Below are positions 4,029 to 24,662 of a stretch of 24,662 bases of DNA, in pieces; the stretch's first letter is position 1; each line of letters opens with the position of its first letter. The notes under the pieces were generated by a model. It was not told where the DNA came from and did no database searches. It worked only from the letters and a program-made list of their open reading frames with translations. The stretch is from Methanocaldococcus jannaschii DSM 2661 (lineage in GTDB: Archaea > AGJL01 > Methanococci > Methanococcales > Methanocaldococcaceae). The stretch is taken from positions 706,049-730,710 of the forward strand of contig NC_000909.1 of NCBI RefSeq assembly GCF_000091665.1, in the 5' to 3' direction. The translations under genes were made by a program, and so were the position numbers.

Positions 4029-4574
4029 ATGAAAATTGGAATAACAAAGATGTATAAAGAGATTGCTGATTTGATAGGTTTGGAAGAGTATGAGATAGTT
4101 AATCCCTACAATACCAAAGTTGATTGTGATTTTTTAATTATATCTAAGGGATATAAGGAGAGAGTTAAAAAGCTAAATCCAGAATCGGAGATTTTTGAAG
4201 TTAAATCAGCAACTTTTATGGATTTAATTAAGAGTTTAGAAGAATTAAAAAAATTAGGCATAGGAAAGGAAGGAAAAATAGATAAATCAATAGAATTCCT
4301 AAAAAATAAAGAAAAAGAAATAAAAAAATTGGTTAAAGATTTGAATGTAAAAGTTAATCCAAAAACAGAGTTTATTAGAAAGGTTGTTGAAGATTTAGGC
4401 TTAGAAATCTCTGATAATGGTATTTTAATAATTCCAGATTATTTGTTTGATGGGAAAAATATAGAAAACATTATAATCTTAAAAACACACAACTATGATT
4501 TAGGGTTAGTTGAGAGGATTGAAGATAGATATCTGCAAATTATACAATCGATTCAGAAATACCTCAATAAATAA
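4029..4574 (+). CDS. Uncharacterised soluble protein embedded in the hmd/hcg cluster
   Basis: The ORF is open from TTG 4014; the first ATG is at 4029 (MKIGITKMY...). No TM segments and a Lys/Glu-rich central helix. I recognise no catalytic motif. The alternating beta-alpha pattern is vaguely like small periplasmic-binding-protein folds, which is weak inference only. Confidence 0.5.
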   Translation: MKIGITKMYKEIADLIGLEEYEIVNPYNTKVDCDFLIISKGYKERVKKLNPESEIFEVKSATFMDLIKSLEELKKLGIGKEGKIDKSIEFLKNKEKEIKKLVKDLNVKVNPKTEFIRKVVEDLGLEISDNGILIIPDYLFDGKNIENIIILKTHNYDLGLVERIEDRYLQIIQSIQKYLNK

Positions 4575-4584
4575 ATGCTAATGG

Positions 4585-4680
4585 AAGAGGCATCATCGAG
4601 TGAAACGAGATGAGTAATGAAATTCCAAGGGAATTTCATCTGATTGCCGAGCAAAGCGAGGCAATGCATCCATTTTGATC
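4585..4680 (+). repeat. GC-enriched structured element, long copy. Shares its 5' end AAGAGGCAT and 3' end GCAATGCATCCATTTT with the element at 24623-24662
   Basis: Starts 11 nt after the stop at 4574. Contains a perfect 10-bp hairpin ATGAAATTCC-AAG-GGAATTTCAT (4617-4639) flanked by GAUGA (4609-4613) and CUGA (4640-4643). A second hairpin is ATTGCC/GGCAAT (4643-4648 / 4660-4665). It ends in ATCCATTTT. Confidence 0.55.
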
Positions 4681-4723
4681 AACCTTTCTTAAAAGGTTGT
4701 TATAAATAAATTGAGGGATTTTT

Positions 4724-6238
4724 ATGAGAGAACTCATTAAAGAGGCAGTTAATAGCTTAGATTCAGCATTAGAGCTAAGAAAACTGATTATAAAAAAACT
4801 AAATGAGAAAAAATTAAAAGAAAGCGACATAATTGAGATTGTTGATGCAGTTGATGATTTATCCTTGGAAGAGATTCAAAAATTGGGTAGTAATTTAAGA
4901 ACATTCCCAATGGGGTGTGATTTGGTTGAGATTGCTGTGGGGCCGTGTTCATCATCATTAACATTAATTCAGTTTATTGAAAATTGTATATTAACCGATT
5001 ATATGGGATTTCCAATTCATATATGCAGTTATGCGGTAGCAGATATTGCTGAAAAAGAGGGTTTAAAGCCAATAGAAGTTTTAAAAATGGTTTTAGAAAA
5101 TGTTGATGTGCCAATAGATATAGACCACTTTGGAATGTATGGACCTATGAGGTTTCCAAAGGAGATAACTCACTGTTATGGGGATTGTTACTTTAAAGGA
5201 CCACCATTTAAAGGTTGTCCAAGAAATAGAATTCATAAGAGATTGATAGAGAAGGAGAAAGAGCATGCAGATGAATTTGAAGATTGGATAAAGTTAGCAT
5301 CAACCCTCTGTATAAATGTTGTTGAGGAGCAGGGTGGAGAGGAGCATGCAGCTCCGTTAGAAGAGATGAAGATTGTTGCAGAGACAGCTAAAAAGTATGG
5401 TAAGGGATTAGAAGGCATTTTCCACATTGGAGATGGATATGATGATTTAATAACTGGAATTAAAGCATGCATTGATTTAGATGTTGATGTGTTTGTTGTT
5501 GAAGGTGCTCCATTTAATAGGGCTAAGAATAGGTTGAAGGCTTTTGCTAAGGCTATAGCTGTCTCAAGGATTTTGGTTAAAGGAGGAGTTGTGGCAACAA
5601 ATGGAGCTTATGAGGATGAATGCAGAGTTGGTTTAAGGAGTGGGCTAAATACAATATTAACTGGCTTTCCATTAAATCATCATGGGTATATGTGCGGCTA
5701 TAGCCCAAAAACTGCAAAGAGAGGGAATTTTGGATTGAGAAGAGTTATGAGAATAATTAAAGAGGAAATAAGAGCAGGAAATGTCAATGCAACATTTATT
5801 GATAAAGATATGGTTAAAGCAATTGCCTTAGGAAATAGGTTTTTGAAAGGGAATATTTACCCTTACAGCATTGGAGGGTTTTATTTAGGAGATGCACACT
5901 GGGCGGCTATAAAGGAGAGTAATTTATGCAAAAAATTGAAGATAAATAAAACTATTGATGATATTTCAGCTGAAAAGGTTGGATTGATTGGGGGGAGATA
6001 TATAAGTTGGGCAATTGCTGAAAAAGCAGAGGAGGTTTATATTTCAGATACTGATAGTTGGGTGGAGAAAGCCACTATCAAAATTTTAAATGAGGCAGGA
6101 ATCAATGCTTATCCATGCAATGGAGATGATAAGAAGGTATTAGAGGCAGATAAAGCATATATAACAACCTTTATCCCAAATATTGCCTTGAAGATATTAA
6201 ATAAGCTTAGAGATAGTAAGGTTGAGCTTTTGATTTAA
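4724..6238 (+). CDS. hcgG: HcgG-like protein (hmd co-occurring gene; large N-terminal domain plus C-terminal Rossmann/fibrillarin-like domain)
   Basis: 504 aa, GAGGGA SD, clustered with hmd and hcgA. Cys-rich patch HCYGDCYFKGPPFKGC. The C-terminal VGLIGGRYISW...VYISD segment has a nucleotide-binding-fold pattern. The assignment rests on context plus my recollection that HcgG is about 500 aa and lies near hmd/hcgA in M. jannaschii. Confidence 0.55.
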   Translation: MRELIKEAVNSLDSALELRKLIIKKLNEKKLKESDIIEIVDAVDDLSLEEIQKLGSNLRTFPMGCDLVEIAVGPCSSSLTLIQFIENCILTDYMGFPIHICSYAVADIAEKEGLKPIEVLKMVLENVDVPIDIDHFGMYGPMRFPKEITHCYGDCYFKGPPFKGCPRNRIHKRLIEKEKEHADEFEDWIKLASTLCINVVEEQGGEEHAAPLEEMKIVAETAKKYGKGLEGIFHIGDGYDDLITGIKACIDLDVDVFVVEGAPFNRAKNRLKAFAKAIAVSRILVKGGVVATNGAYEDECRVGLRSGLNTILTGFPLNHHGYMCGYSPKTAKRGNFGLRRVMRIIKEEIRAGNVNATFIDKDMVKAIALGNRFLKGNIYPYSIGGFYLGDAHWAAIKESNLCKKLKINKTIDDISAEKVGLIGGRYISWAIAEKAEEVYISDTDSWVEKATIKILNEAGINAYPCNGDDKKVLEADKAYITTFIPNIALKILNKLRDSKVELLI

Positions 6239-15729: not shown

Positions 15730-16734
15730 ATGGCGATTAAAATGGACAAAAACTTCACATTAGAAATTTTAAACTTATTGAAAAATAATGTTTTAAAAAA
15801 TAGGTTAAAGATTGGGAAAGAACTTACAGAAATGCTTATTGATGAGATTGATAAGCTAATAGAAACTGCTAATGAAATTTCAGAAGAAATATCAAAAAAT
15901 AGTCCAAATAATTCGAGTTTGTATGATTTAAGGTTGATATATAATAAGTTATCAACTCTTTATGAAGATATTGATAAATTATTGGGTGAAATAGAGTGTA
16001 TTTTAAGTTTAAGCAATAAAGATATTAAAAACTGGAAACTTTGGAAAAACCTTGGAGATAAAGCATATCTATGGAAAGCTTATTATGAAGCATTATTTTG
16101 TTACAACAAAGCATTAGAGTTAAATCAAAATACAGAACTTCTATGTAAAAAGGGCTATGCTTTATTAAAACTATATAAAAGAGATTTAGCAATAAAATAT
16201 TTTGAAAAGGCATCGGAAAAAGATAGAAATAACTATAAAGCACTTTTTGGATTGGGAAAGAGCTATTATTTAATGAGTGATAATAAAAATTCAATAAAAT
16301 ACTTTGAAAAAGTTTTAGAATTAAATCCAAATGATGTAGAAGCATTGGAATATTTGGGAGAGTTATATTATGAAGAAGATTGTGAAAAAGCGATAAACTA
16401 CTTTAAAAAAGCTTTAGAATTAAAACCAGATGATATTGATTTAATTTTAAAAGTTGCCTTTACATACTTCAAATTGAAGAAATATAAACATGCACTAAAA
16501 TATTTTGAGAAAGCTTTAAAATTAAATCCAAATGTGTTTGAATTAGAACAGATTTATGAATCTATGGGAAGAATATACATTTATTTAGGAGAAGATGAGA
16601 AAGCAATAGAATGTTTTGAAAAATTAAAGGAAATAAACCTTTATCATTATGAAATATATGAAATTATTGCTTTAACTTATGAAGAGGTTGGAAATATTGA
16701 AAAAGCTAAAGAATTTTATAAAAAGTTGGTGTGA
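15730..16734 (+). CDS. TPR-repeat protein with an N-terminal coiled-coil region
   Basis: At least 6 TPR-like units (e.g. AYYEALFCYNKALELNQN, SIKYFEKVLELNPNDVEAL, AINYFKKALELKPDD, ALKYFEKALKLNPN). The stop overlaps the next gene (GTGA). Confidence 0.8.
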   Translation: MAIKMDKNFTLEILNLLKNNVLKNRLKIGKELTEMLIDEIDKLIETANEISEEISKNSPNNSSLYDLRLIYNKLSTLYEDIDKLLGEIECILSLSNKDIKNWKLWKNLGDKAYLWKAYYEALFCYNKALELNQNTELLCKKGYALLKLYKRDLAIKYFEKASEKDRNNYKALFGLGKSYYLMSDNKNSIKYFEKVLELNPNDVEALEYLGELYYEEDCEKAINYFKKALELKPDDIDLILKVAFTYFKLKKYKHALKYFEKALKLNPNVFELEQIYESMGRIYIYLGEDEKAIECFEKLKEINLYHYEIYEIIALTYEEVGNIEKAKEFYKKLV

Positions 16735-24099: not shown

Positions 24100-24624
24100 A
24101 TGATTATTTATAAAGAAATAGCTAAGCTAAATAAAACATTTCCTTTATTGAATGAGGAAAAGATACTCTTAGGAACTGACGGAAGTGTAACAAACATCTT
24201 AGAAATTTTATTTGAAGGGGAGTGTAGAGTAGAGACAATTAACCAAAAAATTGTTGCTAACACAAACTATAGAGAGGTTATTCTCAAAGTCAATAATATA
24301 CCTTTAGTTTATGCAGTATCAAAAACACCATTTAAAAATATTGAGGAAGAGAACCTTAGAGAGGAGATAAAGAGAGATTTACTATCTGCAGATATTCCCA
24401 TAGGTAAAATTATAAGAAAACACAACTTAGAAACAAGGAGAGAGATTAAATATATAGGAATTGCTGAAATTGATGATTATTTAAAATCACTTTTAAAAAC
24501 AAATTATAGTAGATTACCAAAAAGAACATATAATATAATATATAAAAATAAAGTATTGATGGAAATTACTGAGATATTTGCCGTTAGAGGAAAGTTAGTA
24601 AAAAATACTTACAGTATAGATTAA
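24100..24624 (+). CDS. Chorismate-lyase-fold (UbiC/DUF98-like) protein
   Basis: LLGTDGSVTNILE resembles the conserved GS(L/V)T motif near the N-terminus of UbiC/DUF98 proteins. About 175 aa from ATG 24100; the ORF track begins at TTG 24070. Confidence 0.5.
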   Translation: MIIYKEIAKLNKTFPLLNEEKILLGTDGSVTNILEILFEGECRVETINQKIVANTNYREVILKVNNIPLVYAVSKTPFKNIEEENLREEIKRDLLSADIPIGKIIRKHNLETRREIKYIGIAEIDDYLKSLLKTNYSRLPKRTYNIIYKNKVLMEITEIFAVRGKLVKNTYSID

Positions 24625-24662
24625 GAGGCATTGCTTCCTTACGGAAGCAATGCATCCATTTT
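24623..24662 (+). repeat. GC-rich element, short copy: AAGAGGCAT..., an 11-bp hairpin, then ATCCATTTT. Overlaps the stop codon at 24622-24624 and runs to the window edge
   Basis: Hairpin GCATTGCTTCC-TTAC-GGAAGCAATGC (24628-24653). The final 16 nt GCAATGCATCCATTTT are identical to 4661-4676, and the first 9 nt AAGAGGCAT are identical to 4585-4593. Terminator-like (hairpin plus T-run). Truncated by the window end. Confidence 0.6.

Follow-up and report, generated by a model that had tools for sequence, protein, structure and literature searches.

Features of the window and of the two elements

In this study, two GC-rich hairpin elements were analysed in a 24,662-nt stretch of the Methanocaldococcus jannaschii chromosome (G000:C1:706049-730710, G000 denoting the M. 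jannaschii genome; hereafter the window). The genome consists of three replicons of 1,664,970, 58,407, and 16,550 bp with approximately 31% G+C, and the ORF calls used throughout are crude. Copy 1 (4585-4671, plus strand) starts 10 nt past the stop codon (4572-4574) of a gene encoding 186 aa without a Pfam match, and is followed 52 nt downstream by an HcgG-like (Fibrillarin_2) gene with its ATG at 4724. Copy 2 (24623-24657, plus strand) is situated between an Rv2949c-like gene, whose TAA (24622-24624) overlaps the first two bases of the element, and a radical SAM gene. A start within 11 nt of a stop codon, which an initial annotation had claimed for both copies, was observed at each.

The two copies have the 9-mer AAGAGGCAT in common at their 5′ ends (4585-4593 and 24623-24631) and the 16-mer GCAATGCATCCATTTT at their 3′ ends (4661-4676 and 24647-24662), both words being present as annotated. 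The 16-mer had been judged to exceed chance, and it does: with up to 2 mismatches allowed, 2 matches were obtained in total, versus 0.04 expected from shuffles. Since a hairpin module (module A) is followed by a second one (module B) at both copies, the 16-mer is composed of the last 11 bases of module A and the first 5 of module B. Module A is defined as TAAGAGG, a stem of at least 7 bp, a variable core, the matching stem, and CATCC, and module B as a T run, GAT, and an 8-bp hairpin. Behind copy 1, module B occupies 4672-4699 of the plus strand and comprises the run ATTTTGAT and a hairpin with the arms CAACCTTT/AAAGGTTG. Behind copy 2, also on the plus strand, it is cut by the window end after its first bases (24658-24662) and is split by nested hairpins at L009:1513-1579. 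An ambiguous base N occurs in this module (ATTTTNATGAA) at G000:C1:730711 (L009:1517), one base past the window end. The T-run that was said to terminate both copies is present, but it has only 4 T and belongs to module B.

As described earlier, the short copy folds into a perfect 11-bp hairpin (TTCC-TTAC-GGAA type), and a 10-bp AT-rich and a 6-bp hairpin fold within the long copy. As DNA, the short copy folds with a z-score of -8.0 and the long copy with one of -4.5; as RNA, the long copy gives -2.5.

Repeat search of the window returned AT-rich chance matches and TPR-like coding repeats only, with no further members of the module A family. The coding repeats, four tandem units of approximately 100 nt with a TPR-type look at 16189-16652, are unrelated to the hairpin elements. 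A tRNA scan found none. The Rfam scan proposed in the initial annotation gave no match in the window at the gathering threshold, and the 3-kb loci surrounding the two copies yielded none there even when E values up to 1 were admitted; the sole match, HgcC, was at an unrelated locus.

Module A is a dispersed repeat family

The element had been regarded as having two copies, which is correct only within the window. Genome-wide pattern search detected the 11-mer GCAATGCATCC in 12 exact copies in M. jannaschii, versus 1 for the reversed control, and when the exact 11-mers and their one-mismatch relatives were read in context, approximately 28 short and 2 long copies of module A were recognized. 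Among these 30 copies, each of which is a hairpin, 27 lie between ORF calls. This census refutes the reading that the shared words arose by chance or belong to a segmental duplication including the flanking genes, which retains next to no probability. The upstream genes are indeed similar in length (186 and 184 aa), but they differ in family, one lacking a Pfam match and the other being Rv2949c-like; the similarity ends at the element borders, only 0.04 matches are expected by chance, and approximately 30 further copies are found elsewhere in the genome.

When exact termini were required (AGAGGCA, 20-30 nt, TGCATCC), 129 copies were found in 14 of the 17 genomes of the genus, and 2 and 39 copies in the two genomes of a second genus of the class. 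Reversed-pattern controls gave 0-1, and these cross-genome counts take in orthologous, non-independent copies. No exact-termini copies were present in the 21 genomes of the other three genera of the class.

Module A is normally accompanied on its 3′ side by one of two other hairpin modules: in M. jannaschii, module B follows 16 of the 30 copies and a GGGTATCCCAATAGGGC-type hairpin follows 12. The copies at G000:C1:97737 and 619059 come after tRNA genes instead of protein genes, and at G000:C1:97737 the tRNA 3′ end is duplicated beyond the far side of the insert.

Module A forms a hairpin with strand-specific features

Sixty-three copies of the commonest module A type were aligned (alignment A1). 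The ends and a tandem G.A/A.G pair are nearly invariant, and the 7-bp stem between them varies. In this alignment 98.8% of the cells pair, and 8 of the 12 pairs change on both sides; such pairing was reached by none of 500 shuffles, and registers slid along the sequence paired at 23-48%. The stems are kept by compensating changes. Since the conserved ends also pair (G-C, A-T, a G.A mismatch, G-C), the whole 35-nt module is one hairpin. Its termini GAGG and CATC pair only with the G.A mismatch and are partly inverted repeats. Compensated stems can come from arm-to-arm correction or from exchange between copies, and selection on the fold is not proved by them.

The hairpin tip is mostly GCGAAGC or GCGTAGC and less often GCGTTAGC or GCGTAAGC. 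A GA..GA core with GCGNAGC or GCGNNAGC was present on the TAAGAGG strand in 67 of 112 copies and in flipped form in 2. On the M. jannaschii chromosome as a whole, 71 motifs of this kind cap stems extended by at least 4 bp, compared with 0 for control words, and 59 of the 71 are intergenic, although the share of sequence outside the ORF calls is only 13%. The TAAGAGG strand also had 16-18 G.T versus 6-8 A.C mismatches in a tally made after false matches were removed by eye, a modest excess from copies that are non-independent.

The commonest module A cores are exactly the DNA mini-hairpin motif described by Hirao and colleagues (reviewed in PMC13037366), and on one strand only. DNA 7-mers of the types d(GCGNAGC) and d(GCGNNAGC) melt at 70-76°C, are nuclease-resistant, and bind SSB poorly, and the RNA form of a related 8-mer, GCGAAAGC, melts at 39°C (PMC13037366). 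Both window copies differ from the motif, their cores being degenerate or of another kind: H1 and H3, two hairpins of the long copy described below, have GTGAAAC and GCAAAGC, and a TTAC loop closes the perfect stem of the short copy; none is an exact mini-hairpin motif. Hitherto, the mini-hairpin has come from phage single-strand origins, the phage N4 promoter, and engineered oligonucleotides, and we know of no genomic repeat family that is capped by it.

Structure of the long copy and occurrence of hairpin E

Approximately 67 nt were previously thought to replace the hairpin interior in the long copy. The arrangement is different: a complete GA-core module is interrupted by 50 nt, so that AAGAGGCAT (5′ terminus, 4585-4593) is followed by the 50 nt (4594-4643) and then by TTGCC-GAGCAAAGCGA-GGCAA-TGCATCC. 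The 50 nt comprise hairpin H1 (4594-4612), which has a GA..GA design like the module A core, and AGTA, the 10-bp AT-rich hairpin E, and CTGA (4613-4643); the remainder is hairpin H3 with its GA..GA core (4644-4664) and the 3′ terminus TGCATCC (4665-4671), all on the plus strand. The 3′ 29 nt are identical to those of a short copy at G000:C1:738612. The long copy is a nested composite in which a two-hairpin unit (H1+E) sits inside an otherwise standard module A. Nesting is normal in the family; at the copy 2 site, for example, module B is intact in G012 and split by extra hairpins in M. jannaschii and G011.

Pattern search of 40 genomes detected only three copies of the long form, the other two being at G000:C1:25252-25337 and G001:C1:1458599-1458700, in unrelated loci and each followed by module B. 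Their stems differ from one another in both H1 (CATC/GATG, CACC/GGTG, and CGCC/GGCG) and H3 (TTGCC/GGCAA, TTATC/GATAA, and TCACC/GGTGA), and every difference is compensated. As the stem variants of long copies also circulate among short copies, exchange between copies is as likely a source of them as point mutation. BLAST of the 50-nt insert detected no second full copy, the E hairpin family being found instead. The three long copies differ in their junction bases (CAT, CAC, and CGCC), which does not support a simple insertion in which the 50 nt generated a target duplication.

The k-turn that the initial annotation had suggested for the long copy fails because its GAUGA belongs to H1 as the 3′ arm and varies together with that stem, being GGUGA and GGCGA in the two further long copies; CUGA is replaced by CUAA in G001. 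A kink-turn or box C/D motif was accordingly discarded, its G and A being Watson-Crick paired within H1 and its boxes not kept. More generally, the long copy might be an independent small RNA gene (k-turn, C/D-like, or an RNA with a spliced insert), a reading to which its 87 nt, three hairpins, folding scores, and the GAUGA and CUGA flanking the central hairpin lend some colour, as does the related two-hairpin unit within a probable TnpB guide-RNA scaffold elsewhere (see below). We consider it very improbable, since GAUGA and CUGA are not conserved among the long copies, Rfam gave no match even at E up to 1, and the sequence starts 10 nt past a stop codon, lies within a gene pair resembling an operon, and lacks a suitably placed TATA box; moreover, no relative compared has the element at the same site, and each of the three copies in 40 genomes is at another locus.

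Hairpin E, searched as AATGAAAT, 4-14 nt, and ATTTCATCTGA, occurred 27 times in 8 genomes of the genus, versus 0 for the reversed control, and in three settings: 1) inside module A, as in the long form; 2) in larger mosaic arrays beside reversed module A copies; and 3) in a conserved unit of approximately 110 nt with its own TATA box. In G010, the last of these overlaps the 3′ end of a TnpB gene (Cas12f1-like TNB, RuvC, and OrfB_IS605 domains), and for this reason the unit is probably the right end plus guide-RNA scaffold of an IS200/IS605-type element. M. jannaschii has one solo unit, at C1:1622769, back to back with the HgcC RNA (RF00062, 130.8 bits). The H1+E unit thus recurs in the TnpB right end/guide-RNA region and beside HgcC; the long copy of the window lacks the remainder and the outer end of that unit and has H1+E between module A termini instead. 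These settings link the repeat modules to IS200/IS605 ends, and the solo unit, within G000:C1:1622700-1623010, is probably a TnpB right end or guide-RNA scaffold.

At the same M. jannaschii locus (G000:C1:1622700-1623010; L029:905-1205), a single palindromic TATA element lies between HgcC and the unit. The unit adjoins HgcC also in G005 and G010, and in G013, G016, and at one locus of G010 its neighbour is a different GC-rich sequence. Depending on the genome, the H1 tip of the TnpB-end unit reads GCGTAGC or, in flipped form, GCTTCGC, and a reversed GA..GA core (CTCGCTTCGCTCG) within unchanged module A termini was observed at G005:C1:436210, G011:C116:25088, G011:C140:16756, and G039:C1:885542. 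Together, the reversed cores in intact termini and the flipped H1 tips suggest that hairpin tips invert in place.

Insertion sites and flanking duplications

In seven relatives, the copy 1 junction measures 23 nt (beyond where the alignments stop) and has no element; in G002 it measures 44 nt. The insert in M. jannaschii is bracketed by the 10-bp AT-rich direct repeat ATAAATAAAT, the upstream copy of which (4567-4576) contains the stop codon of the 186-aa gene and the downstream copy of which (4702-4711) is just 5′ of the ribosome-binding site and ATG of the HcgG-like gene. Taken alone, this repeat is not above chance because its score of 10 is within the control range of 6-11.5. The history of this junction is more complex, because M. 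jannaschii has 22 extra nt in common with G002. At the corresponding junctions of L032 (G016) and L036 (G011), inserted small genes were noticed, a nucleotidyltransferase/HEPN (toxin-antitoxin-like) pair by the look of the sequence. With other inserted genes in two relatives, the junction appears to be an insertion hot spot.

At the copy 2 site, G006 has a single junction of 34 nt and no element, and M. jannaschii has a 130-nt insert between two copies of 32 nt. The arms of this duplication are identical at 29 of 32 nt with an exact core of 20 nt; the upstream arm (24566-24597) is the 3′ end of the Rv2949c-like gene, and the downstream arm (L009:1580-1611) stands directly before the ATG of the radical SAM gene. 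By the insertion, the Rv2949c-like gene gains 13 new codons up to the TAA overlapping the element. The orthologous insert is present in G005, G011, G012, G013, and G014 and absent in G006, G001, G002, and G009; five further genomes match in two pieces only. The G002 site holds the duplication and module B without module A. Since relatives have empty sites, both window copies are insertions.

At 16 of the 30 M. jannaschii copies, the flanks proved to be duplicated over 22-60 nt with 80-100% identity, as compared with 0 of 30 control positions, so the check for target-site duplications proposed in the initial annotation was positive for the family as well as for copy 2. In most cases, a duplicated stretch of the junction stands on either side of the element, so that neither neighbouring gene is disrupted. 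The length of the duplication is not fixed, being 10 nt at copy 1, 32 nt at copy 2, and up to approximately 60 nt elsewhere. Taking the census, the folds, and the empty sites together, we conclude that both window elements very probably belong to a family of mobile, non-coding DNA repeats that form hairpins and are found in the hyperthermophilic Methanocaldococcus lineage.

Orientation relative to genes

Between co-directional genes of M. jannaschii, module A is in sense orientation in 20 cases and antisense in 3. The same preference was seen with a cruder ORF call in M. jannaschii and seven further genomes (34 versus 18; 116 candidates, a few of them false), and all mini-hairpin-capped hairpins of the chromosome are biased 33 to 15. 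A stop codon lies within 8 nt of the module A 5′ end in 20 copies, versus 1 at the mirror position, and in 8 copies the TAA of TAAGAGG itself serves as the stop codon. Likewise, 32 of 109 copies have the end of a long open frame no more than 45 nt from their 5′ end, versus 9 at the other-strand mirror. This mirror comparison is not quite symmetric, as the 3′ side is taken up by modules B or C. The element thus has polarity: its 5′ end abuts stop codons, and the strand favouring the hairpin is the sense strand. Replication strand was rejected as the cause of the orientation, since plus- and minus-strand copies were interleaved along the chromosome by inspection.

Such polarity would be expected if the hairpins were primarily functional 3′-UTR RNA (an exonuclease barrier, processing site, or termination aid) that was spread by mobility and kept by selection. 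A role combining mobility and selection has been proposed for bacterial REP sequences. The sense orientation of 20 of the 23 copies lying between co-directional genes, the 5′ end at the stop codon, the excess of G.U over A.C mismatches, the invariance of the tandem G.A pairs while the stems vary, and identical termini in two genera all agree with this reading. It is nevertheless the less probable one in our estimation, though it deserves serious consideration, for several reasons: RNA is by far the less stable form of the commonest core, a run of 4 T follows only about half of the copies (16/30), and the junctions concerned are free of the element in the closest relatives. Termination in archaea depends on a U-rich tract, with no hairpin required (PMC7515710), and the two genes flanking copy 1 overlap in relatives, so that a terminator at this position would stop transcription ahead of the downstream gene. 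With no hairpin needed, a T-run at only half of the copies, and overlapping flanking genes in relatives, a dedicated terminator role is unlikely for copy 1. A literature search found no map of M. jannaschii transcript 3′ ends.

Relationship to known repeats and possible mode of spread

The nearest known entities are MJRE1-3, the palindromic repetitive elements of M. jannaschii (Suyama, Lathe & Bork, FEBS Lett 2005; cited in PMC2229807 and PMC2996958). Module A is from the same organism and is likewise short, GC-rich, palindromic, multi-copy, mostly extragenic, and occasionally inside genes; the family is almost certainly the published MJRE repeats, as judged by their description. The 2005 study reportedly counted 141 elements with 14.3 kb in total, a number of the same order as the approximately 70 mini-hairpin-capped hairpins plus other modules counted here. 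Because these repeats of the same genome were reported in 2005, the window pair as an observation is already known: it is a known kind of element and no new RNA gene. The 2005 work may already cover the mini-hairpin cap, polarity, nested long form, 10-60 nt flank duplications, unit shared with TnpB, and occurrence in a second genus.

Among the interpretations offered initially was a MITE-like repeat with conserved ends. The multi-copy state, empty sites in relatives, and duplicated flanks agree with it; the variable duplications (10 to approximately 60 nt) and the failure to find a parent transposase do not. MITEs such as the Sulfolobus MITEs and Correia/NEMIS are likewise non-autonomous, shorter than 200 bp, multi-copy, and flanked by direct repeats, and their copies can similarly be read through as coding sequence or mRNA structure, but module A differs in having flank repeats of unfixed length and termini that form inverted repeats only in part. 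No parent insertion sequence with module A ends was identified, the genes searched being those for Y1, TnpB, and reverse transcriptase.

The REP/BIME mosaics resemble module A in being imperfect short palindromes with conserved flanking bases and compensated stems, arrayed with several hairpin types and placed after gene ends. A derivation of this kind, in which a Y1 (TnpA/RAYT-type) transposase acts in trans to move REP/PATE-like derivatives of IS200/IS605 ends in single-stranded DNA form, would account for the REP-like design (conserved single-stranded flanks around a hairpin with a compensated stem), the strand specificity, and the occurrence of the H1+E unit in the TnpB 3′ end of G010 and in promoter-bearing solo copies beside HgcC RNA. 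Its probability is small, however. Search for Y1 transposase (PF01797) gave 0 matches in the M. jannaschii genome, and no Y1 gene was found in the copy-richest genomes G001, G002, and G039; in all, only 3 of the 14 genomes of the genus that carry the element have Y1 genes, as does one of the two genomes of the second genus, so that most carrier genomes lack RAYT or Y1. Furthermore, IS200/IS605 and REP insertions make no target duplication, in contrast to the 22-60 nt at 16 of 30 copies here. No reverse transcriptase was found in the M. jannaschii genome either, and both enzymes were therefore rejected as the movers.

Returning to module A as a mobile repeat, its active form would be a hairpin on one strand, as a single-stranded nucleic acid, because the G.A pairs, the mini-hairpin cap, and the G.T excess are all strand-specific. 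The active strand would most likely be single-stranded DNA, during an insertion or copying step; DNA is favoured over RNA because the commonest core d(GCGNAGC) is the more heat-stable as DNA and M. jannaschii grows at approximately 85°C. The element lands at gene junctions, the duplication of which spares both genes, and after insertion it would simply form part of the mRNA, at the 3′ end or between cistrons, where it may protect the upstream message or do nothing. The orientation bias could reflect selection, a transcription-linked step, or a function as RNA; selection for the sense orientation is conceivable because this orientation supplies a stop codon at once.

With rather low probability, the family could be a prokaryotic mobile element of an undescribed type, that is, a strand-specific single-stranded DNA hairpin capped by the heat-stable d(GCGNAGC). 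It would have no transposase of its own, and its spread in hyperthermophilic methanogens would depend on a process coupled to repair or replication that copies 10-60 nt of the target. Were this so, tightly packed or overlapping genes would both survive the insertion, and in sense orientation the element could also act as the 3′ hairpin of the upstream mRNA.

Implications

For annotation, GC-rich hairpin islands after Methanocaldococcus genes should be read as repeat insertions and not as new RNA genes or k-turn RNAs, and short "extra" gene ends beside such islands as duplicated targets. The features pointing to an unusual mechanism belong to the family, none being specific to the window copies. 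With identical termini in two genera, strong polarity relative to genes, long target duplications of variable length, no recognizable transposase, and a core that is, to our knowledge, the most heat-stable small DNA hairpin known, the family is a candidate for an unusual insertion mechanism in a hyperthermophile.
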